Positions 1 to 8,945 of a DNA stretch of 8,945 bases are shown piece by piece (position 1 is the stretch's first letter; the number at the start of each line of letters is the position of its first letter). Position numbers and translations under genes: made by a program. Source of the DNA: a virus (Duplodnaviria > Heunggongvirae > Uroviricota > Caudoviricetes); the IMG/VR virus record IMGVR_UViG_2585427729_000015, positions 1-8,945 of that record. One strand, written 5' to 3'. The notes under the pieces were generated by a model. That model was given only the letters and a program-made list of their open reading frames with translations, was not told the DNA's origin and searched no databases.

Positions 1-380
<380 letters not shown>

Positions 381-679
381 TAGACAAAGACACTATCACG
401 CAGTGGATACGAAGTGGACGACTTCAGGCCGCAAAGATAAATCCAGATAAACCTAAAAGCCCATATCGCATTTGCAAGTCAGACTGCATTGCGGCGCTTA
501 AGTCTGTAAGACACAATAGCGCGGTGAATGCGGTTGATGTGCAGGAGGTTAAAGCATGTCAATCAAACTACGCGGTGGCACGTGGCACTGCGATTTCGTC
601 GCGCCAGATGGATCAAGAGTTAGACGCTCACTTAAAATATCGGACAAAAGGCAAGCGCAAGAATTTCACGATCGTCTGA
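381..679 (+). pseudogene. Excisionase / AlpA-like DNA-binding gene, 5'-truncated by the IS insertion; 3' end overlaps the integrase start
   Basis: Frame of track ORF 308-679 translates from 381 as ...TITQWIRSGRLQAAKINPDKPKSPYRICKSDCIAALKS..., resembling the helix-turn-helix of phage Xis/AlpA-type excisionases. No start codon or N-terminal helix remains because the IS terminus abuts at 380. Position immediately upstream of, and co-oriented with, the integrase is the canonical xis-int arrangement. Confidence 0.5.
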
Positions 680-1716
680 AAGCAGAAGCGTGGAGAGTAA
701 AAAATCTCGGGGAATCACCGAAAAAGCTATTCAAGGAAGCCTGCATACGGTGGCTGCGTGAGAAATCGGATAAGAAGTCCATTGATGATGACAAGAGCAT
801 TATATCGTTCTGGATGTTGCACTTCAGAGAAACCATTCTCTCTAACATAACAACAGAAAAAATAATGGAGGCGGTAGACGGGATGGAAAACCGCCGCCAT
901 CGCCTGAACTGGGAGATGAGCCGGGACAGGTGTTTGCGGCTTGGCAAGCCAGTGCCGGAGTATAAACCAAAGCTGGCAAGCAAAGGAACGAAGACGCGGC
1001 ATCTGGCAATACTTCGCGCTATTCTCAATATAGCTGTTGAATGGGGATGGCTTGACAGGGCGCCCAAAATATCAACACCACGCGTTAAGAATGGACGAAT
1101 CAGATGGCTTACAGAGGAGGAATCGAAGCACCTGTTTGCAGAAATTGCTCCTCATTTCTTCCCTGTGGTCATGTTTGCAATCACGACAGGCCTTCGCCGT
1201 TCCAACGTTACAGACCTTGAGTGGTCACAGGTCGATCTGGATAAGAAAATGGCATGGATGCACCCTGATGAAACAAAAGCTGGCAATGCGATCGGAGTTC
1301 CTCTTAACGAAACCGCATGCCAGATATTAAGAAAACAGCAGGGGCTCCATAAGAGATGGGTATTTGTCCACACCAGACCTGCCTACCGAAGCGACGGAAC
1401 AAAAACAGCAGCGGTAAGGAAGATGAGAACCGACAGCAACAAGGCATGGAAGGGAGCGTTAAAGCGGGCGGGCATTAGCAACTTCCGCTTCCATGACCTG
1501 AGGCATACCTGGGCAAGCTGGCTGGTTCAGTCCGGTGTCTCTCTTCTTGCACTTAAAGAGATGGGAGGATGGGAAACTCTCGAAATGGTTCAAAGATACG
1601 CCCACCTTTCAGCCGGGCATCTCACCGAGCACGCGAGCAAAATCGATGCGATTATAAGTCGCAATGGCACAAATACGGCACAAGAGGTGAACGTGGTTTA
1701 CTTAAATGTGAGGTAA
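556..1716 (+). CDS. int: Tyrosine-type site-specific integrase (phage integrase family, P22-like)
   Basis: 386 aa with GGAGG Shine-Dalgarno at 543-547. Catalytic signature residues are visible: box I arginine in TTGLRRSN, HxxR in FRFHDLRHTWASWL, and catalytic tyrosine context EMVQRYAHL. The gene ends 14 bp before a tRNA-Thr 3' fragment (att core). Confidence 0.9.
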   Translation: MSIKLRGGTWHCDFVAPDGSRVRRSLKISDKRQAQEFHDRLKAEAWRVKNLGESPKKLFKEACIRWLREKSDKKSIDDDKSIISFWMLHFRETILSNITTEKIMEAVDGMENRRHRLNWEMSRDRCLRLGKPVPEYKPKLASKGTKTRHLAILRAILNIAVEWGWLDRAPKISTPRVKNGRIRWLTEEESKHLFAEIAPHFFPVVMFAITTGLRRSNVTDLEWSQVDLDKKMAWMHPDETKAGNAIGVPLNETACQILRKQQGLHKRWVFVHTRPAYRSDGTKTAAVRKMRTDSNKAWKGALKRAGISNFRFHDLRHTWASWLVQSGVSLLALKEMGGWETLEMVQRYAHLSAGHLTEHASKIDAIISRNGTNTAQEVNVVYLNVR

Positions 1717-1730
1717 TTTATTGATTTAAA

Positions 1731-1776
1731 TGGTGCCGATAATAGGAGTCGAACCTACGACCTTCGCATTACGAAT
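1731..1776 (-). tRNA. tRNA-Thr(CGT) 3' fragment, 46 nt (anticodon loop to CCA end); att core copy, not an intact tRNA gene
   Basis: Reverse complement of 1731-1776 is ATTCGTAATGCGAAGGTCGTAGGTTCGACTCCTATTATCGGCACCA, identical to my recollection of the 3' 46 nt of E. coli thrW including the CGT anticodon and CCA end. Sequence beyond 1776 does not continue into an anticodon stem, D-arm or acceptor 5' strand. Confidence 0.75.
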
Positions 1777-2523
1777 TATAAGAATCCGCTTCTAATTCAA
1801 AGTATTACCCCATCAACACTGTGCTCACACGTCCCACCACATCAAAACATGTAAAGCCTTGCAAGCCATTGTGAGGCCTTATGTGTCTCAGTTTTGTCCC
1901 ACCTTGTATTATGACTTGCATAGCCAATGAAGATAAACGTGACGACAAACAGCGCAGCAGTCTTCTTTTCTTTCACACTTTCCCCAATCAGCATACATAC
2001 TTTCTACCATAACTGTAGTGAATGTCTGTTATGAGCGAGCAAAAGAGATTCAATTACCGGGGAATTACTCCGACATAAGCTCTCCCAGAAACACCGGAAC
2101 AGCGATTCGCATATTCTCTTCTATACTTTCAGTCTGACCGGCTGGAGATTTCATAGCAAGAAAATGGATGCGCCAAGACCTATGCGGGAAAGAGGCTGAG
2201 GAAATAATTGCCGATAGCACTGTGCCCGCCGAAAAGTTAATCTGGCACGCAATGACGCGCGTCCTTGGGGCATCAGGAATCAGAGAGCCAACTTAACAAC
2301 CCATTATATATTATTTAACAGGACCGTTACATGTACAAAGTTCAATGATTAGTGATTCTGTGACGCCACATACAACCTAAGCCCCTGATATAAAACCAGT
2401 CTATGCAACACCTAAAAATCATATATGATAGGGTGATAAGTCAACGCGCAGTATAAAAATCAAGCTAAAAAATGCTTTCAGCATAGTGAATCTATTTCAC
2501 ACTACATAATTAAGGATGAAAAA

Positions 2524-3369
2524 ATGACTGCACCAGTAATTAGTTTTATCAATATGAAAGGTGGGGTTGGTAAAACAACTTTATGCGTTGGGATTGCTGA
2601 GTTTTTAGCCAACCATATGGGGCGCAAGGTTCTAGTTATCGATATTGATCCTCAATTTAATGCCACTCAGTCCTTAATGGGGCATTATGATCGAGTAGAA
2701 GAATATATGACTGCCCTTCGCCCTAATAATCAAACCATTCGAAAGATTTTTGAGCTTCCAAATTCATTAATGGAAGATGAAAAGAAAGTGACACCAGAAC
2801 AGGTCATTACTAAAGTTTCAGACAATCTTGATATTATCTTAGGTGATATAAACATTATCTTTGATACTAACCAAGAGGGTATTAGAATAAAAATGTTGCG
2901 TAAATTCATCACCGAAAATGACTTAAAAGAAAGTTACGACTATATCTTTATCGATAGCCCCCCAACAATCTCATTATTTACAGATACCGCACTCCTTGCT
3001 TCTGATTATTATCTTACTCCGGTTAAAATTGATCACTACTCGGTGCTTGGAGCAAGCAGTTTAAATAGCGTTATAAGAAATATGCGCACACATCATGAGA
3101 AAGAAATCAAGCAAGTCGGTTACATTTATACAAACACTGATGCTGAAATGACCAATAAAACAAGGGAAATTAAAGAACAATTCGAAAACCATACTCAATT
3201 TACAAATTTTTATTTCTTTGAAAATCAATTAACCTACGTGCGTGATTTAATGGTAGGTTATCAAGGAAATATTCCTTCTTGTTATTCAAAGTCACGCCAA
3301 GATATAGAAAAGATCTGTAACGAATTTATTAACAGAGTGGCTCACTTGGAAGGTAACACAAATGAATAA
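2524..3369 (+). CDS. ParA/MinD/Soj-family P-loop ATPase (deviant Walker A)
   Basis: 281 aa; N-terminal ISFINMKGGVGKTTL matches the deviant Walker A KGGxxK[ST]; VLVIDIDPQFNATQ (A' box) and YIFIDSPP (Walker B) are present. AAGGA Shine-Dalgarno 7 nt upstream of the ATG. Visibly AT-rich, roughly one-third GC by eye. Confidence 0.85.
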   Translation: MTAPVISFINMKGGVGKTTLCVGIAEFLANHMGRKVLVIDIDPQFNATQSLMGHYDRVEEYMTALRPNNQTIRKIFELPNSLMEDEKKVTPEQVITKVSDNLDIILGDINIIFDTNQEGIRIKMLRKFITENDLKESYDYIFIDSPPTISLFTDTALLASDYYLTPVKIDHYSVLGASSLNSVIRNMRTHHEKEIKQVGYIYTNTDAEMTNKTREIKEQFENHTQFTNFYFFENQLTYVRDLMVGYQGNIPSCYSKSRQDIEKICNEFINRVAHLEGNTNE

Positions 3370-3760
3370 ACAATTAATTAAAGCGCTCAATAAAGCTAAC
3401 AATATGCCCATGACCAAAGAAAACTTCTTAGGCTTGGTAATTATGTTGATTCTTTCAAAAGAGGTTTTTAGATCAAATTTTGATGTTAGTAAATTTATTA
3501 ACAAAACCTTCAAAATATCTTTTTTGAATTATGCTGTACGGTCAAGAACTTTGATGTGCGCTAAAATTTGCAAACATATTAATGAATTAAGTGAGAATGA
3601 CATAAAGATGGCTTATACGCATTTCTTAAACAACATTAACACATTAGACATTATTTTTAATGATGCAAATAAAACAAGCCAAAAATCCACATCTAAAAGC
3701 AAGCATGCTATAAGGAATTTAAATATTTGGATTAATGCAAATAAAAAGGAAGAAGAATAA
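3362..3760 (+). CDS. Hypothetical protein (132 aa), translationally coupled to the ParA-like gene
   Basis: Start ATG overlaps the upstream stop by 8 nt; GGAAGG Shine-Dalgarno 8 nt upstream. Lys/Asn-rich AT-rich coding sequence with no recognisable motif. Same strand and composition as its neighbours. Confidence 0.6.
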   Translation: MNKQLIKALNKANNMPMTKENFLGLVIMLILSKEVFRSNFDVSKFINKTFKISFLNYAVRSRTLMCAKICKHINELSENDIKMAYTHFLNNINTLDIIFNDANKTSQKSTSKSKHAIRNLNIWINANKKEEE

Positions 3761-4425
3761 TGCTCACGCAGGATCCCTTCAACATTGGAAGAGATGTAAA
3801 TTATTTTAGAGCGGAGGTGCAAAAGCACCTCAGAACCACTGATGAAATAAACAAATCAGTATCAATATTTAGGCAAATAAGTCTTTGTAATACAATTTTA
3901 AGTCACAATCCTAATCTAAATCACTCTTCTTATATAAAAGGTTTTATATATGATACCTTAAACTCCTTAATTGCCATTATAAAAAAAAGAGAACGGTATC
4001 TCCAACTGAACTTCCGCTCAATGGTGGAGCATGTGGCCAGAATAAGCCTCAATAAGAACTACAATGGTGGGGATTTTGACCAAACTGTACGTCGTAGAGA
4101 CTTTGACTTCTTAAAAGCCCAACAAGTCGATGAAGGCTGGTCTTATTTACATAATGTCTATATCAACGCCTGTTATTATGTTCACTCCTCCCCCCAAGCG
4201 AACCTAAATGTTACATCAACATTTATATCACTTATGGAGGGAGATTGTAATTCAACACAGCATAAAATGGTGAAAAAACTTCATGAGGTAGTATCGGCGC
4301 TGATGAGAATCATTATAAAGTATTATCATCAGCATATCTCAAACATTTTCTTTAGAAACAAAAAGGATTTAGAGAAAATAATGGGAAAAAGCCTTTATTC
4401 ATATTATACCAGCTTAGACAATTAA
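3760..4425 (+). CDS. Hypothetical protein (221 aa), translationally coupled (TAATG overlap); contains a possible HEPN-like Rx4H motif
   Basis: Start ATG shares one nucleotide with the upstream stop (TAATG at 3758-3762); AAGGAAG Shine-Dalgarno upstream. Contains RSMVEH (residues 86-91). No other recognisable domain by eye. Confidence 0.6.
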   Translation: MLTQDPFNIGRDVNYFRAEVQKHLRTTDEINKSVSIFRQISLCNTILSHNPNLNHSSYIKGFIYDTLNSLIAIIKKRERYLQLNFRSMVEHVARISLNKNYNGGDFDQTVRRRDFDFLKAQQVDEGWSYLHNVYINACYYVHSSPQANLNVTSTFISLMEGDCNSTQHKMVKKLHEVVSALMRIIIKYYHQHISNIFFRNKKDLEKIMGKSLYSYYTSLDN

Positions 4426-4462
4426 TTCTCTCATATTCATTGCGTAGAGCATAAATATCTAT

Positions 4463-4958
4463 CTAACCACCTAAAATGCCAGAAAATCTAGTTGTATACC
4501 GGTGCGAAAATATCTCGCGTTTCATCTGCCACTGCTGCTGAATGCCCTGCCCAGCGAAACAGAGTGTTTCCTTCCCGTCTTTTGCGTTGAGGTGCTCCAG
4601 CACGCTCATTAACTTTTCGCTCCCAGGACCCAGCGCGTTATCGTCGAATAGGTTAGGGCATGCTCTGACTGAAGAAGTCCCCCAGCATTACCCCGGCTTT
4701 CTGATATCGGTGTCCGTCTTTCCATATTGCATCCAGACTCCCCGTTGCTACTGCAATGATATCCCGACTGTCCTGTGTCGGGATGAGGAGCTTCACCGAC
4801 GCGTTGTTACAGTAGTACGACTCGTTCAACGCAAAGGGTATCGTGTAAAACCGATGATGACACTGCCGGCAATCAGCACTGACGTCAGCAAACGTGAGAA
4901 AGAACAGATAAGCCGAACGATTTAGGAAATGTTTGAAGAGACTGATATGTGGATGGTT
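4463..4958 (-). pseudogene. umuC-like (Y-family translesion polymerase) 3' remnant, 5'-truncated and frameshifted
   Basis: Minus-strand translation gives ...DSRDIIAVATGSLDAIWKDGHRYQKAGVMLGDFFSQ in one frame, ending at a stop at 4654-4656, then in the +1 frame ...NLFDDNALGPGSEKLMSVLEHLNAKDGKETLCFAGQGIQQQWQMKR...RYTTR... to a stop at 4463-4465. This matches my recollection of the UmuC C-terminal region. There is no in-frame start and the N-terminal roughly 300 codons are absent. Recognisable similarity is clearest for 4463 to about 4870. Confidence 0.55.
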
Positions 4959-5355
4959 TCAGTTTAAACGCCTTGAACCGTCATATTACCTAAGTACAAT
5001 CCGCTGTGACTGGCAATCATTCAATACTTGCACTATCAAAAGTGCATCAGCCAACCGCAGCACGTCTTGCATACGACCTGTCTGCGGTTTCAATCACCTC
5101 TCACCACCAGTCCCATCAATAATAATTAAACAGCGCCTAAACAAAATAAATAACAACAAGTCAACAACCTCGACAGGATGCCGATGGGATGATGAAGAGA
5201 TAAGAAAGAATAACTAGTAAAGCCCTAAAACGTCAGCGTTCAGACGCGTTTTTTACTTAACCGGTAACAAATACGTTGTATCATAGCAACATAAAATGAT
5301 TGTTCTAAATCAGATTAACTCCTCACTTTTGTACAATGTCGCTTACAGGTATACC

Positions 5356-7245
5356 ATGAAATCCGAGACGCTAACTGTCCAACAACTTTTTCAAGACCGC
5401 CGACAATACTGTGTTCCATTCTATCAACGTGCCTATGTATGGACTCAGCGAAACCAATGGTCAGCTCTACTGGAGGATATCCTAGAGAAAGCACAATCCC
5501 GGCTCTCGGGTACAAAACCAACTCCCCATTTCCTTGGTGCAGTTGTACTGGAACCTCAACCAAAAAAAGGATTATTCGGTGTAGATTCCATACATATTAT
5601 TGATGGTCAGCAACGATTGACCACTCTTCAATATGTTCTGGCATCCATCCGATTAGCATTACGTGCAACAGATCTTTCCAACTTAGAGCCTCTCATTTCG
5701 TCTTGCCTGAAAAACTCAAACGAAGACACAATGCGAAATAAAGAAGTAGAGCGCTTCAAACTGTGGCCAACTTTTCGGGATCAAACTCATTTTATTCAAA
5801 GTTTTAATGTTGAAAATATTGACGATATCCGGAATGTATTCTCTGATAGTTTCACGCAGCATGGTACGTTGCGTAAGCATTTTAATCACCCGCCATCACT
5901 AGAAGCATTATGTTTTTTTACTGAAGCCTTTATAAAGTGGATTAAAATAGAAAATCACTCACCACGAGAAAATGCTGTAGCATTAATTGAGGCTGTCTTG
6001 ACGGATCTGAAACTAGTAAGCATATTTCTCGAGGCTGAAGATGACGCTCAAATAATTTTTGAAACATTAAATGGCAGAGGTGCGGAACTTCATGCCACAG
6101 ATCTTATTCGCAATTATATTTTTATGTGCGCTGAACATGAAAATATTAATGCTGTTGAATTATATGAGAATGAGTGGAAGATCTTTGAAGATACGTACTG
6201 GTCAGAAAGACAACGTCGTGGTCGTATTAATAAACCACGCATGGAGTGGCTAGTGCATGCAACATTGCAATCAGAAAGGCAACGTGAAATCGATCTGTCT
6301 CGTCTTTACAATGAGTATCGTGATTATGTAAGTAAGGACTTGCCTTCACAACGAGCAGATCTGCAAGTAAAGCGCCTCAAACAATATGCATCACAATATA
6401 AAGAATTGGTTGGTGGTTTTGGCACAACCCCCATCTCACACTTTGGACATCGCATCGCAGCCTATGATGTGACGACACTTTATCCGCTTGCTTTGTTCAT
6501 TTCGATAGCTAACATCGCCGATGATGAGAAAGCAGCCATGTATAATGATCTTGTCTCCTACGTAGTACGAAGAGCCGTATGTGGCCTGACGCCAAAGAAT
6601 TACAACAATGTATTTATGAATGTATTGCGGCACTTGTCTAAAACAGAAATTTCCAGTGTTGAGTTACGTAATATCCTCAATAGCTTAAATGGCGAAGCCT
6701 CACGTTGGCCTGGGGACTCAGAATTTCTCAACGCTTGCATCAATGCTCCACTTTATCCTGGCAGGCTCGACGCACCGAAAATGCGCTCAATGTTAACGGA
6801 ACTTGAAAGAGAACTTTGTCGCCAAGTGAAGACAGAGAAGCCTGATGTTCCAAATCTTTCTAACCTCGATATCGATCATCTTATGCCTCAAAGTTGGTAT
6901 TCCTGTTGGCCTCTCGAAAATGGTCATATGGTGACAAATTCAGATGCTACGGTATTGAACCAAATTGTTCTGTCTGGAACCGATCTTACCCCAGAACAGC
7001 TACTGGTAAGGAAACGGCAACAAGCGATAACTACGTTGGGAAATCTAACTTTGCTTAACCTTAGCGTAAACCGTTCTGTTCAGAATGCTGTATTTCTGAA
7101 AAAACGTGATGCTCTCATCGTCCACACCAATCTACGACTGAACATTCCACTTATAGTTAAGGATAAATGGGATGAGGATGAAATCCTGGAGCGGGGTAAA
7201 AAGTTGGGGGAAATTGCATTGAAAGTATGGCCAAAACACGATTAA
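5356..7245 (+). CDS. DUF262 (ParB-like NTPase/nuclease) + DUF1524 (HNH-like) protein, GmrSD-family candidate type IV restriction endonuclease
   Basis: N-terminal YCVPFYQRAYVW and IIDGQQRLTTL (DGQQR) are the hallmark of DUF262; C-terminal NLDIDHLMPQSW and LGNLTLLNLSVNRSVQN resemble the DUF1524 His-Me finger. Start placed at the ATG at 5356 (AGG 6 nt upstream); an in-frame ATG at 5296 with no Shine-Dalgarno would add 20 residues. Confidence 0.8.
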   Translation: MKSETLTVQQLFQDRRQYCVPFYQRAYVWTQRNQWSALLEDILEKAQSRLSGTKPTPHFLGAVVLEPQPKKGLFGVDSIHIIDGQQRLTTLQYVLASIRLALRATDLSNLEPLISSCLKNSNEDTMRNKEVERFKLWPTFRDQTHFIQSFNVENIDDIRNVFSDSFTQHGTLRKHFNHPPSLEALCFFTEAFIKWIKIENHSPRENAVALIEAVLTDLKLVSIFLEAEDDAQIIFETLNGRGAELHATDLIRNYIFMCAEHENINAVELYENEWKIFEDTYWSERQRRGRINKPRMEWLVHATLQSERQREIDLSRLYNEYRDYVSKDLPSQRADLQVKRLKQYASQYKELVGGFGTTPISHFGHRIAAYDVTTLYPLALFISIANIADDEKAAMYNDLVSYVVRRAVCGLTPKNYNNVFMNVLRHLSKTEISSVELRNILNSLNGEASRWPGDSEFLNACINAPLYPGRLDAPKMRSMLTELERELCRQVKTEKPDVPNLSNLDIDHLMPQSWYSCWPLENGHMVTNSDATVLNQIVLSGTDLTPEQLLVRKRQQAITTLGNLTLLNLSVNRSVQNAVFLKKRDALIVHTNLRLNIPLIVKDKWDEDEILERGKKLGEIALKVWPKHD

Positions 7246-7265
7246 TGCAATTAATAAAATGATTA

Positions 7266-7293
7266 TAGCGGCCTTACATTAGTAAGGCCGCTA
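7266..7293. terminator. Perfect 12-bp stem / 4-nt loop hairpin; possible intrinsic terminator, orientation unclear
   Basis: TAGCGGCCTTAC-ATTA-GTAAGGCCGCTA at 7266-7293, 21 bp downstream of the GmrSD-like stop. U-rich flank is present on the minus-strand side (complement of AATAAAATGAT), not clearly on the plus side. Confidence 0.4.
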
Positions 7294-7495
7294 CTCACTA
7301 TTAAATCCTTTAATTTGCAATAAGAACAGCAGTGTCAGCCCTAGGTTTCGGACTTTGTACCGCTTATCTTGTCTTCAAAAATCAGCTCGCATCCTGCACA
7401 GCTCAACGCATTACGTTGTAGATCGGTGTTCTGGTCATTTGTTGATACGCGTACATAGCCAATAAGCATGGTAGCGCCCCCTGACAAAAGCAGGA

Positions 7496-7846
7496 ATGAT
7501 GCCATTTGCTCGTTATTTCTGCATTTTCATAAATGTTGGTTTAAGAGCAAGCGGGCAGTACACCGATAATTTGTTATTTACAGGTCCTGATGGTCTTAAG
7601 ATTCAGGTGTTTCGCCGGACGCTCGCAAATTTGACTACTGTCGGTGTAGTAAATTCTGTGCCAGTGACTTTCCCTGTCCCGTTCCCTGTTAATTGCTGGG
7701 GCGTTTTTTCTACCAAATTAACATGGGTTCAGATAACTAACTCATGCGAGTGGGTAAGCAATACAGGATTTACCGCTCAGGTCATGATGAATATTGCTGT
7801 AAATACAAACACCTCAGACGCTATGTTTTTAGCTATAGGATATTAA
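7496..7846 (+). CDS. Tail-fibre C-terminal (variable) segment, probably a silent or truncated alternative distal tail-fibre coding block
   Basis: Frame is open only from 7475; no convincing ribosome-binding site for the ATG at 7496. Stop at 7844-7846 lies 1 nt before the ATG of a tail-fibre-assembly gene, the typical stf-tfa junction. Sequence is Thr/Asn/Val/Pro-rich (VTFPVPFPVN). Confidence 0.45.
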   Translation: MMPFARYFCIFINVGLRASGQYTDNLLFTGPDGLKIQVFRRTLANLTTVGVVNSVPVTFPVPFPVNCWGVFSTKLTWVQITNSCEWVSNTGFTAQVMMNIAVNTNTSDAMFLAIGY

Positions 7847-7847
7847 T

Positions 7848-8288
7848 ATGAATCGTTTTGTGTTCAGTCCATCTGAGTCCCGTTTTTATGCCATCGAGTG
7901 GCAGGCTGATTATGTTGATAATAATTGTTGGCCGCATGATGCCATTAACGTTAGTGACAGCATTTATTATGAGTTTTCCGGCACTCCCCCTACAGGTAAG
8001 CAACTTATAACTTTAAATAACATGCCATCATGGGGTGATATTCCTCCACCTACACGAGAAGAATTAATTGTCACCGCTGATGTCGAGAAGCAAAAAAGAA
8101 TAGATTTAGCCAATGATTACATGAACGGTAAGCAATGGCCTGGTAAAGCAGCTATTGGTCGTCTGAAAGGTGAGGAACTGGCACAATATAATTTGTGGCT
8201 GGATTATCTGGACGCACTGGAGCTGGTCGATACCGCCAGTGCGCCAGATATTGAATGGCCTACGCCTCCGGCAGTTCAGGCCAGATGA
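7848..8288 (+). CDS. Phage tail fibre assembly protein (Tfa/U-like chaperone)
   Basis: 146 aa with the characteristic C-terminal region ...YNLWLDYLDALELVDTASAPDIEWPTPP shared by lambdoid/Mu/P2 tail-fibre assembly proteins. AGGA Shine-Dalgarno 7 nt upstream. Confidence 0.75.
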   Translation: MNRFVFSPSESRFYAIEWQADYVDNNCWPHDAINVSDSIYYEFSGTPPTGKQLITLNNMPSWGDIPPPTREELIVTADVEKQKRIDLANDYMNGKQWPGKAAIGRLKGEELAQYNLWLDYLDALELVDTASAPDIEWPTPPAVQAR

Positions 8289-8862
8289 CATCCGGCGCGG
8301 TGCTCGTATCTGTTGCTGTCACCGCGTCAATGTAATCCAGCACAGTGTTAAGGCTGGTTGTTTCTGCCTGCGTCAGTTTACGTCCGGCCTGCAATTTCAG
8401 CTGAATCAGACTGATTGAATCCATTACAGTATCAATCAGTGACTGGCGCTGTGCTTCTGCTGCATCTACTGCGGCGCTATGCTGTGCTTCGGTATCCGTC
8501 ACCCATTTCTCACCATCCCATTTATCGTATGGCGTTAACGGGGCGATAGTGGTTGTATTATCAGGGTAATCACCCGGAACTGTGATTTCTTTTGATTCTC
8601 CTGTTTCGGTGCTAAAGACGATTTCACCGCGATAGTCTGGCACATATTCCCATGAGTTAAAATCTACAGATCGGCAGATTGCATAACCAGCTTTGTATGT
8701 GACAGGGGCATCTAAACAGGAATATGCAGGGATACCGACACCAACGGCAAGATATTCAGTTGATGTGGAAATATATTCCCGTGTTTCACCATCATAGTTA
8801 TAGACGGTAATATTCCCCGCCTTTGTAGCAATAAACTCGCTATTTAATACAGCGTTATCCAT
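8260..8862 (-). CDS. Phage tail fibre assembly protein (Tfa/U'-like), convergent with the plus-strand tfa
   Basis: 200 aa; ...PYDKWDGEKWVTDTEAQ... and C-terminal ...DAVTATDTSTAPDVIWPELPEA match the Tfa family pattern. GAGGG Shine-Dalgarno upstream; start ATG overlaps the stop of an upstream minus-strand ORF (TAATG). Confidence 0.8.
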   Translation of the reverse strand: MDNAVLNSEFIATKAGNITVYNYDGETREYISTSTEYLAVGVGIPAYSCLDAPVTYKAGYAICRSVDFNSWEYVPDYRGEIVFSTETGESKEITVPGDYPDNTTTIAPLTPYDKWDGEKWVTDTEAQHSAAVDAAEAQRQSLIDTVMDSISLIQLKLQAGRKLTQAETTSLNTVLDYIDAVTATDTSTAPDVIWPELPEA

Positions 8863-8945
8863 TATGCAGCCCTCACGATATAGTTAAATGCAATATTCCG
8901 TGGACGGGTTTCATTTATCCCATATGCTGTTGTTCTCTGATTCCC
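8862..8945 (-). CDS. 3' end of a minus-strand tail-fibre gene (partial; continues beyond the window end)
   Basis: Open frame across the final 27 codons (...GNQRTTAYGINETRPRNIAFNYIVRAA-stop) with its TAA overlapping the ATG of the downstream tfa. Too short for independent confirmation. Confidence 0.4.
   Translation of the reverse strand, partial: GNQRTTAYGINETRPRNIAFNYIVRAA

Follow-up and report, generated by a model that had tools for sequence, protein, structure and literature searches.

The stretch of DNA analyzed here, referred to as the window, comprises 8,945 nucleotides of a Caudoviricetes virus (positions 1 to 8,945 of IMG/VR record IMGVR_UViG_2585427729_000015) and was mapped by six-frame open reading frames (ORFs), domain scans and comparisons with other genomes (Table 1). 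Its left end holds an insertion sequence (IS) and an integrase gene, followed by a copy of the 3' end of the tRNA gene thrW, the att core; its right end holds tail-fibre genes. Between them, from the first base past the core to the start codon of a dead pin invertase gene (1776-7469), lie a conserved arm, a trio of AT-rich genes headed by a ParA-type ATPase gene and bounded by gene stumps, a dispersed repeat, and the restriction gene gmrSD. Our data make it very probable that this interval is a layered, defence-bearing cargo slot at the att-distal end of a thrW-integrated prophage of the e14/SfV family (prophage B in the following), a family that combines lambdoid early genes with a Mu-like baseplate and Pin-invertible tail fibres. 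A first-pass annotation, made from the sequence alone, had already called the interval a hotspot for accessory genes, starting at 1777, which is the first or second base after the core, and had assigned it to a lambdoid or P22-like prophage. With its lambdoid early genes, Mu-like baseplate and Pin-invertible fibres, the prophage is e14/SfV-like and not P22-like.

Table 1. Features of the window, with strand and basis of assignment.
Feature	Position	Strand	Basis
IS3-family (IS911-like) orfA, outside the interval of interest	6-344	-	ORF list
xis remnant and intact tyrosine integrase (556-1716), element A	381-1716	+	Phage homology, Phage_integrase domain
att core, 46-nt copy of the tRNA-Thr thrW 3' end	1730-1775	-	46/46 identity
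att-distal arm of prophage B; conserved, bounds the variable slot on the left	1776-2038	.	Genome counts and alignment
Small conserved ORF, 44-50 aa, hydrophobic N-terminal stretch	1842-1994	-	ORF list
SRAP (YedK-like SOS-response-associated peptidase) C-terminal stump, left block end	~2156-2296	+	tblastn
ParA/MinD-type P-loop ATPase, 281 aa, KGGVGKT deviant Walker A, first trio gene	2524-3369	+	AAA_31, CbiA, phrog_164
132-aa helical protein, invariant Y-x2-RSRTLM-x-AK motif, second trio gene	3362-3760	+	
221-aa all-helical protein, possible HEPN-like fold, putative RNase effector, third trio gene	3760-4425	+	
umuC (Y-family polymerase) C-terminal stump, frameshifted, right block end	4463-4871	-	tblastn
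DinI-family C-terminal stump, 28 codons	4842-4925	+	PGAP annotation in relatives only
~80-bp dispersed intergenic repeat, block joint	5010-5090	.	5,394/5,426 genomes
gmrSD, single-chain Type IV modification-dependent restriction endonuclease, 629 aa	5356-7245	+	Pfam, PADLOC
Hairpin, 13-bp stem, terminator-like insulator between gmrSD stop and pin stump	7265-7294	.	
pin (serine invertase) 5' stump, 41 codons	7347-7469	-	Resolvase domain; tblastn to Pin residues 1-38
Invertible tail-fibre cassette	7496-8862	.	Domains; Mu-like baseplate genes adjoin it in relatives
Gp53-like_C tail-fibre C-terminal segment	7496-7846	+	Domain scan
pix-like 26-bp inversion crossover site (putative), edge of invertible segment	7524-7549	.	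Relatives
tfa, Caudo_TAP tail-fibre assembly gene	7848-8288	+	Domain scan
tfa, Caudo_TAP tail-fibre assembly gene	8260-8862	-	Domain scan

The att core, TGGTGCCGATAATAGGAGTCGAACCTACGACCTTCGCATTACGAAT (window 1730-1775), matches the 3' 46 nt of thrW in reverse complement at 46/46 positions (thrW of Escherichia coli BS74R-D, locus L002; L numbers denote sampled loci), as the first-pass annotation had supposed. For a 31-nt part of this sequence, the window has a single occurrence, where chance would give 0. Since ARAGORN detects no complete tRNA in the window, the core is a displaced half-site, and in single lysogens an identical thrW core is adjoined by yagP'/paoD. A prophage that integrates in a tRNA gene would be expected to duplicate the att site in this way, with the intact tRNA at one prophage end and a copy of its 3' part at the other. 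Core and 263-bp arm together are present in 3,811 of the 5,426 complete E. coli genomes on which all genome counts in this study are based. When six loci were aligned, similarity dropped sharply after 2038 in all six. Another lambdoid prophage has part of the arm (1842-2038) next to icd'. On the right, the tail-fibre module that had likewise been recognized at first pass begins near 7470 and consists of the Gp53-like_C segment and two Caudo_TAP genes beside the pin stump. Homology among prophages stops at 7542-7554, and the pix-like site forms the right flank of the conserved block. Outside the window, Mu-like baseplate and tail genes directly follow the same fibre cassette in W21, MINF_8D, IHE3034, Jnd12 and L018-L024, in W21 with the full set of baseplate, sheath and tube genes.

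What lies between these flanks varies from one prophage to the next. The whole interval of the window occurs in only 47 of the 5,426 genomes (at 99.3-99.8% identity), as against the 3,811 that carry the arm. Alternative contents were collected from about 20 sampled loci. Between the end of the arm (2038-2042) and the start of the repeat and gmrSD segment (5012-5016), the sub-slot has four alternative fillings: the ParA block (window, W21, BS74R-D); a 4-fold-beta-flower gene with an IS3, a FlxA-like gene and a ydfV stump (MINF_8D); a retron of RT-Toprim type I-C (PADLOC, 736 bits), placed exactly between arm and gmrSD (L017); and 854 bp with an 89-aa ORF (L023/L024). In ampC_0069, arm, ParA block and DinI stump (PGAP) are present without gmrSD, and homology to the window ends at 5060 in the 80-bp repeat, followed by a lambda-type GpJ/stf tail. 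In a wider sense, the slot holds pinE-mcrA-icdC in K-12 e14; pinE, a GIY-YIG gene matching PD-T4-3 (464.7 bits) and AraC in O157:H7; Pin, GIY-YIG, M78 peptidase/HTH, Bro-N and trypsin genes and then yagP' in L020; tfa-gtrV-gtrB-gtrA-attP-int in phage SfV; and a 1,083-aa protein without known identity in DETEC-P80. At the icd site of the ST131-type strain M24, sitABCD lies behind an arm-like element. The validated defence genes among these payloads are GmrSD, McrA, PD-T4-3 and the type I-C retron, while several other fillings lack a defence match. The locus thus combines conserved phage flanks, content that differs between the flanks, and enrichment in validated defence genes. The comparison of related prophages that the first-pass annotation had proposed as a check on the hotspot therefore came out in its favor, and neither of the contrary outcomes that it had named was seen: the interval is not intact across relatives, and in BS74R-D the att arm and the tail fibres belong to one element. 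As a side observation, the MINF_8D filling (L003 8263-11237, ~2,973 bp) and the ParA block (window 2039-5014, ~2,976 bp) are unrelated in content and nearly equal in length, as are the two complete intervals (5,562 vs 5,565 bp), probably by coincidence.

From the contrasting composition of the interval, the first-pass annotation had deduced at least three independently acquired blocks. The contrast is real, with GC contents of 33.1% in the ParA trio (2524-4425), 51.6% in the umuC stump (4463-4838) and 41.4% in gmrSD (5356-7245), two-proportion z values of 5.3 (trio vs gmrSD), 6.8 (umuC vs trio) and 3.6 (umuC vs gmrSD), and a cargo range of 33-52% compared to about 44-48% in the adjoining phage genes. 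The separateness of gmrSD also holds. In contrast, the AT-rich cassette came together with both stumps, SRAP and umuC, as one 2.7-kb piece, because window 2165-4838 aligns colinearly, at 85.5% identity, with a prophage slot of the Enterobacter cloacae complex (L009/L010), where the difference in GC content already exists (28-35% in the cassette vs 50-55% in umuC). Two arrivals, not three, are therefore demonstrable at this locus.

The Enterobacter slot (L009 5910-11120, at the end of a lambdoid prophage) reads SRAP (intact), ParA, 132 aa, 221 aa, umuC (intact), umuD, Pin, tail fibre. It has the same trio, order and neighbours as the window and lies likewise between a host junction and a pin/tail-fibre module, but it retains complete SRAP, umuC, umuD and pin genes, adjoins a lambda-type tail (GpJ), lacks gmrSD, and occurs in another host genus. 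By tblastn, the SRAP stump matches residues 172-209 in the intact SRAP of L009 (225 aa), and PGAP annotates it as a pseudogene in relatives. The umuC remnant claimed at first pass covers, with a frameshift, residues 285-419 in the UmuC of L009 (422 aa; tblastn), and is a frameshifted DUF4113 pseudogene according to PGAP. The DinI stump is unconfirmed, as tblastn with the intact DinI of L021 and a Pfam scan were both negative. SRAP stump, DinI stump (PGAP only), 80-bp repeat and 41-codon pin stump are pieces that the first-pass annotation had not listed. In these slots, pin repeatedly has SOS-linked genes as neighbours, namely SRAP and umuDC and, in other relatives, dinI. In E. coli, the ParA block is present in 52/5,426 genomes, once per genome. 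Since none of the 52 copies falls below 99% identity to the window and there are no intermediates, the data point to a single recent entry. The insertion of the trio between SRAP and umuC would be an older event that took place elsewhere, since the trio occurs without both genes in Yersinia, Dickeya and Erwinia, in Dickeya on a P4-type integrase island and in Yersinia beside a giant LPD/MuF protein.

The other layer, gmrSD, is what the first-pass annotation had termed a GmrSD-like gene. Both domains of the protein score above cut-off (GmrSD_N, DUF262, PF03235, 118 bits; GmrSD_C, DUF1524, PF07510, 72.4 bits), and the PADLOC model mREase_IV is matched over 629/629 positions with 1437 bits. The longest ORF begins 20 codons further upstream, at 5296; we place the start at the ATG at 5356, where all annotated homologues and the PADLOC model have it. 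The protein has DGQQR at 83 and D507-H508 (located by script) as well as N522 (counted along the printed sequence). In Eco94GmrSD, mutants in D507, H508 and N522, the catalytic residues of the His-Me finger, are inactive (PMC4437046). GmrSD homologues cleave glucosylated 5-hydroxymethylcytosine (glc-5hmC) and 5hmC DNA in an NTP-stimulated reaction and restrict T-even phages, and Eco94GmrSD restricts T4 lacking ip1 more than 10^6-fold (PMC4437046). By analogy, the enzyme of the window would cleave the glucosyl-hmC/hmC DNA of T-even phages. Phage Ip inhibitors do not affect all close GmrSD alleles equally (PMC4437046); the window protein is 96.3% identical to the version at the ssrA site and 94.1% to the version at the icd site. 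Eco94GmrSD is encoded on an SfII-like prophage, "immediately downstream" of the tail-fibre genes (PMC4437046). Eco94GmrSD, CT596 GmrSD and UTI89 GmrSD (He et al., 2015, PMC4437046) all resemble the window protein as prophage-borne 629-aa chains of DUF262 and DUF1524 with D507-H508-N522; that paper describes neither the truncated pin nor the att surroundings, nor the variable region that continues past the gene.

The pin stump next to gmrSD is 93-98% identical to the 5' end of intact pinE (O157, K-12 e14), with homology ending at 7346. Because the 80-bp repeat lies directly downstream of an intact pin in L019, L020 and L021, the gmrSD segment must have replaced pin from codon 42 to the end, between the repeat and the 5' end of pin. 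The 5' end of pin is found in 1,616 of the 5,426 genomes and the gmrSD-pin' block (5012-7542) in 299 of them, with an identical pin' junction in prophages at thrW, at ssrA (IHE3034) and at icd (Jnd12). Variants with the ParA block and without gmrSD exist, as do variants with gmrSD and without the ParA block. The two blocks are independent, because their genome counts differ, both single-block variants occur, and the gmrSD-pin' junction is shared by three sites. The terminator-like hairpin after gmrSD may insulate the cargo, and relatives exist that lack each of the blocks.

The first protein of the ParA trio matches AAA_31 (130.6 bits) and CbiA and belongs to phrog_164, which is annotated as 'ParA-like partition protein'. 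For the 132-aa protein, no ParB, RHH or HTH match was obtained, and a fold search with its model was uninformative. In the 221-aa protein, R86-S-M-V-E-H91 (Rx4H) is invariant in 30 homologues down to 49% identity and conforms to the Rx4-6H motif of HEPN proteins. A PDB-sequence profile search and a Pfam scan of all 30 family members gave no match. Searching 50,697 phage records by tblastn gave no match to the protein either, although a PHROG family exists. A scan of genome contigs with the family found a single species representative, Erwinia sp. S63, indicating that the family is rare. The three genes stay together in E. coli, Yersinia, Dickeya, Erwinia and Enterobacter alike, and are always AT-rich compared to their surroundings. 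The sub-slot of the trio holds a retron in another strain, and the trio lies beside gmrSD, a restriction enzyme gene of a validated type. Because of the possible HEPN-like fold, the conservation of the operon and the company it keeps, we favor a role in defence or addiction: judging from location and fold, the cassette is probably another module of this kind. Tentatively, and with less probability, we go further and propose a previously undescribed three-gene anti-phage or addiction system, in which the ATPase and the small helical partner might control a HEPN-like RNase; that the ~195-bp arm element and the 80-bp repeat serve many lambdoid prophages as dedicated recombination joints for trading such cassettes would be a weaker addition to this proposal. 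A match of the trio to PD-T4-2_B (E=0.0027) was dismissed; Pfam and NCBIfam gave generic P-loop matches only. A partial literature search brought up no paper on the thrW slot or on a ParA/HEPN trio.

A serious if doubtful alternative is that the trio has nothing to do with defence or addiction, and is the leftover partition module of a plasmid or phage-plasmid, made up of ParA and a small centromere-binding protein. The best family matches of the ATPase are indeed to partition ATPases, PHROG 164 is named accordingly, and the small gene downstream recalls the layout of type Ib par loci. However, the ATPase stays below the cut-offs of every NCBIfam partition equivalog (77 vs 180 bits for ParA_partition, 74 vs 400 for PrgP), its partner resembles neither ParB nor RHH or HTH proteins, and no iterated centromere-like repeats flank the operon, so that by equivalog scores, partner and centromere iterons the trio would not count as a ParABS system. 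Moreover, the third gene stays with the other two in every context seen, and its possible HEPN-like fold and invariant Rx4H are more in keeping with an effector than with a protein for partition. Every context found is on a chromosome, and the occupation of the same sub-slot by a retron in another strain also fits a defence or addiction module better than a partition locus.

For the interval as a whole, it is very improbable that we are dealing with a fixed, vertically inherited island, in which the mosaic records ancient events and no hotspot is active. Such an island would account for the near-identity of the 47 genomes and for a ParA block that occurs once per genome and has no copies of intermediate identity, but not for the same flanks holding at least four other fillings and a variant without gmrSD, nor for the gmrSD-pin' block in prophages at three att sites. 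The left neighbour varies as well (IS911-like IS and integrase in the window, mobilisable island in W21, 55-bp integrase remnant in BS74R-D), and the sampled loci hint at a phylogenetically incongruent spread of the fillings.

The left neighbour deserves attention also for another reason, which is the ownership of the cargo. Window 381-1776 is 98.1-98.5% identical to the int-xis-attP region of mEp213, mEp043, HK542, HK446, mEpX2, HK75 and SfX. Homology to these free phages begins at 381, next to the IS end near 380 that cuts the xis region, and ends exactly at the core (1776). From 1776 rightwards, the window is 99.5% identical to BS74R-D, where this sequence is the distal end of a prophage with its own integrase abutting thrW. 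The order in BS74R-D is paoD, yagP', a 55-bp integrase remnant, core, arm, cargo, pin', tail remnants, ymfL/ymfT/ymfK, the prophage's own integrase, thrW and proA, and the integrase of this e14-like prophage is only ~69% identical to that of the window. Because integrase homology stops at the core, and because the cargo adjoins a different integrase in BS74R-D, the window is the junction of two tandem thrW elements. Cargo and tail fibres belong to one element, because the BS74R-D interval is the distal end of the prophage whose integrase abuts thrW. The integrase at 556-1716 belongs to another lambdoid prophage of the mEp213/HK542/SfX type (element A in Table 1), decayed, cut by the IS and integrated in tandem at the same att, with the core as a hybrid junction between element A and prophage B. 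In strain 2015C-4136CT1, an IS3-family transposase is annotated at the same junction; the orfA at 6-344 is IS911-like. W21 has a mobilisable island (MobC/relaxase, DUF4365 gene) left of the core and no lambdoid integrase. None of the complete E. coli genomes has more than 72% of the window; its tandem arrangement is either rare or from a strain outside the genome set.

We give hardly any credence to the idea that the cargo belongs to the element of the left integrase, or that the window is the attP region of a single hybrid phage. The order xis-int-core-cargo-tail fibre is exactly the vegetative order of SfV, and both elements use the thrW core, as this idea would have it. Yet the free phages with this integrase lose homology at 1776, so that their other arm differs, and the cargo in BS74R-D abuts yagP' with 55 bp of that very integrase, while prophage B has its own. 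In addition, the IS interrupts xis, and some strains have the IS-interrupted integrase directly beside thrW, without cargo.

The left element retains only the IS-cut xis and the integrase, and BS74R-D retains only the last 55 bp of such an integrase beside yagP'; this suggests repeated occupancy and decay at the outer att site. In O157:H7 86-24 (L007 1-8800), a P4-like satellite with an AAA ATPase and a gene set annotated as 'ABC-three component system' stands in tandem to the left of the thrW core. Together with the mobilisable island that W21 has in this position, it makes the outer side of the core another variable site rich in defence genes.

If the interval is a cargo slot of prophage B, its position in the phage map would be between the tail-fibre/pin module and attP, where content is presumably non-essential, and the layers would be gmrSD with its terminator by the fibres, the 2.7-kb ParA piece by the arm, and the arm with its small conserved ORF. 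Independent variants share their breakpoints, which lie at 2038-2042, 5012-5016/5060 and 7542-7554. The 80-bp repeat in the middle is unannotated, occurs in 5,394/5,426 genomes with a median of 3 copies and a maximum of 9, one of them between ecpE and ykgJ, and has no Rfam match. In at least four loci the gmrSD block is bounded by it on the left, and in ampC_0069 it bounds the ParA block on the right. At every junction a gene is cut: SRAP, umuC, dinI (PGAP only) and pin. ORFs and domain scans of the interval reveal no integrase, transposase or relaxase, and a repeat search brought up no second att core and no cassette-type repeats, only short and probably accidental matches, including a 22-nt similarity (1633-1654 / 2035-2056) that we judged to be due to chance. 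Because of the coincident breakpoints, the cut genes, and the lack of recombination machinery and cassette repeats, we favor homologous exchange and illegitimate joins over site-specific capture. Homologous recombination would take place between short shared sequences, namely the arm (1842-2038), the 80-bp repeat, and the 5' end of pin with the pix-like site, and co-resident or superinfecting prophages would be the partners. Illegitimate joins would occasionally seed new content and leave truncated genes at the junctions. Next to no probability attaches to the interval or the ParA block being an autonomous mobile unit (satellite, mobilisable island or integron-like array) with site-specific machinery of its own, since the trio does occur in unrelated contexts (the Dickeya P4-type integrase island, beside the LPD/MuF gene in Yersinia, and in Erwinia), but integrase, transposase, relaxase, a second att core and flanking direct or inverted repeats beyond chance are all missing, and both block ends cut genes (SRAP, umuC), as is typical of illegitimate or homologous exchange. 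An integron-like or otherwise site-specific cassette array had also been considered for the slot, and was rejected: there are no repeated sites, and the only recombinases are the neighbour's integrase and the dead pin stump.

Several observations weigh against a defence-bearing slot with active turnover. The trio has no significant match to known defence systems among the PADLOC models, and a promoter scan of the interval found 20 sites where 17.8 were expected, which is not above chance and offers no help for expression in the lysogen. The interval is very stable in its sub-lineage of 47 genomes, so that turnover is not fast. The roughly 20 loci are a sample, not a census of the 3,811 arm-bearing genomes, and the 8.9-kb window is too short to show whether tail and integrase of prophage B are intact in its own genome. 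Finally, turnover by recombination at the three joints is deduced from the coincidence of breakpoints.

The arm contains a ~195-bp att-proximal element (1842-2038) that is 91-98% conserved and present in ~70% of E. coli genomes. It is found at the ends of thrW and icd prophages, and partly in K-12 strains at ~0.58 Mb, in the DLP12 region. The small ORF of the arm encodes a hydrophobic stretch, ..KEKKTAALFVVTFIFIGYASHNTRWDKTETHKASQWLARLYMF, and is followed by a hairpin (1856-1877). It is open in five of the six aligned loci; BS74R-D, the sixth, lacks the search peptide. The ORF has no Pfam match. In an Rfam scan of the window, the sole match was a chance, sub-threshold snoRNA inside gmrSD, and arm and 80-bp repeat are therefore not explained by an RNA gene. 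Candidate explanations for the arm element are a gene for a small membrane protein, a region for att-arm binding, or a simple recombination joint.

At the fibre end, the 26-mer TTCTCCCAAACCAACGTTTATGAAAA is identical in L001 and K-12 e14, beside pin in both; the window copy (7524-7549) differs from it at 4 positions and may function as a crossover site. A second, distal crossover site for the invertible segment was not found within 3 mismatches, and would in any case lie beyond the window. A functional pin beside the stf/tfa segment is lacking, while the pix-like site and both tfa genes are present; with only 41 codons of pin left, inversion would therefore need an invertase in trans. Compared to the window, the fibre segment has the opposite orientation in IHE3034, Jnd12 and K-12 e14 (L004, L005, L016), and the 200-aa tfa is pin-proximal in these three and pin-distal in the window. 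Inversion must therefore have occurred before the truncation of pin, or by an invertase in trans. A 2025 paper reports that PinQ inverts cryptic prophage DNA.

The slot has clear counterparts in known systems. K-12 e14 is a member of this phage family, with a ymfQ-type Mu-like baseplate, an invertible stf/tfa segment and pin, and carries a Type IV restriction gene in the same slot, and its pin 5' end is 93.4% identical to window 7346-7542. It differs from the window in its icd location, its intact pinE, its restriction enzyme (the HNH enzyme McrA and not GmrSD), and in the absence of a second cargo layer. The phages SfV, SfII and SfX (and P22) share with the window the succession of tail fibre, tfa, terminator, cargo, attP and int-xis as well as thrW integration, and the int-xis region of SfX is 98.3% identical to window 381-1776. 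However, their cargo is for O-antigen glucosylation (conversion and superinfection exclusion at the receptor level) and not for nucleases, and SfV has neither pin nor an invertible segment. As summarized in PMC13492144, the defence hotspots of P2 and P4 (Rousset et al., 2022) consist of conserved flanks with a hypervariable anti-phage payload (restriction enzymes, retrons, unknowns) and carry one to a few systems per element. The logic of phage flanks around a defence-enriched payload is the same; in the window, phage family and flanks are different, the joints include an 80-bp repeat and a truncated invertase, and decayed SOS-type genes (SRAP, umuC, dinI) are present.

That such a hotspot exists is textbook prophage biology, as cargo on the att side of the tail fibres is known from lambda, P22/SfV, e14 and P2/P4, and GmrSD in this exact position has been published before. 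The benefit of the cargo would be protection of the lysogen, with GmrSD directed against T-even phages and the ParA/HEPN-like cassette as a putative defence or addiction module. The layering shows that a restriction gene can kill pin, the tail-fibre switch of its phage, and yet spread across three integration sites. Because the slot is rich in validated defence genes, its uncharacterized payloads, above all the ParA/HEPN-like trio, are promising subjects for tests. With the end of the arm at 2038, the repeat at 5010-5090 and the pin stump with pix-like site as anchors, payloads could be harvested from thousands of E. coli genomes. What remains as new is thus mainly the trio as a candidate defence cassette, and a set of addressable anchors for mining the slot.

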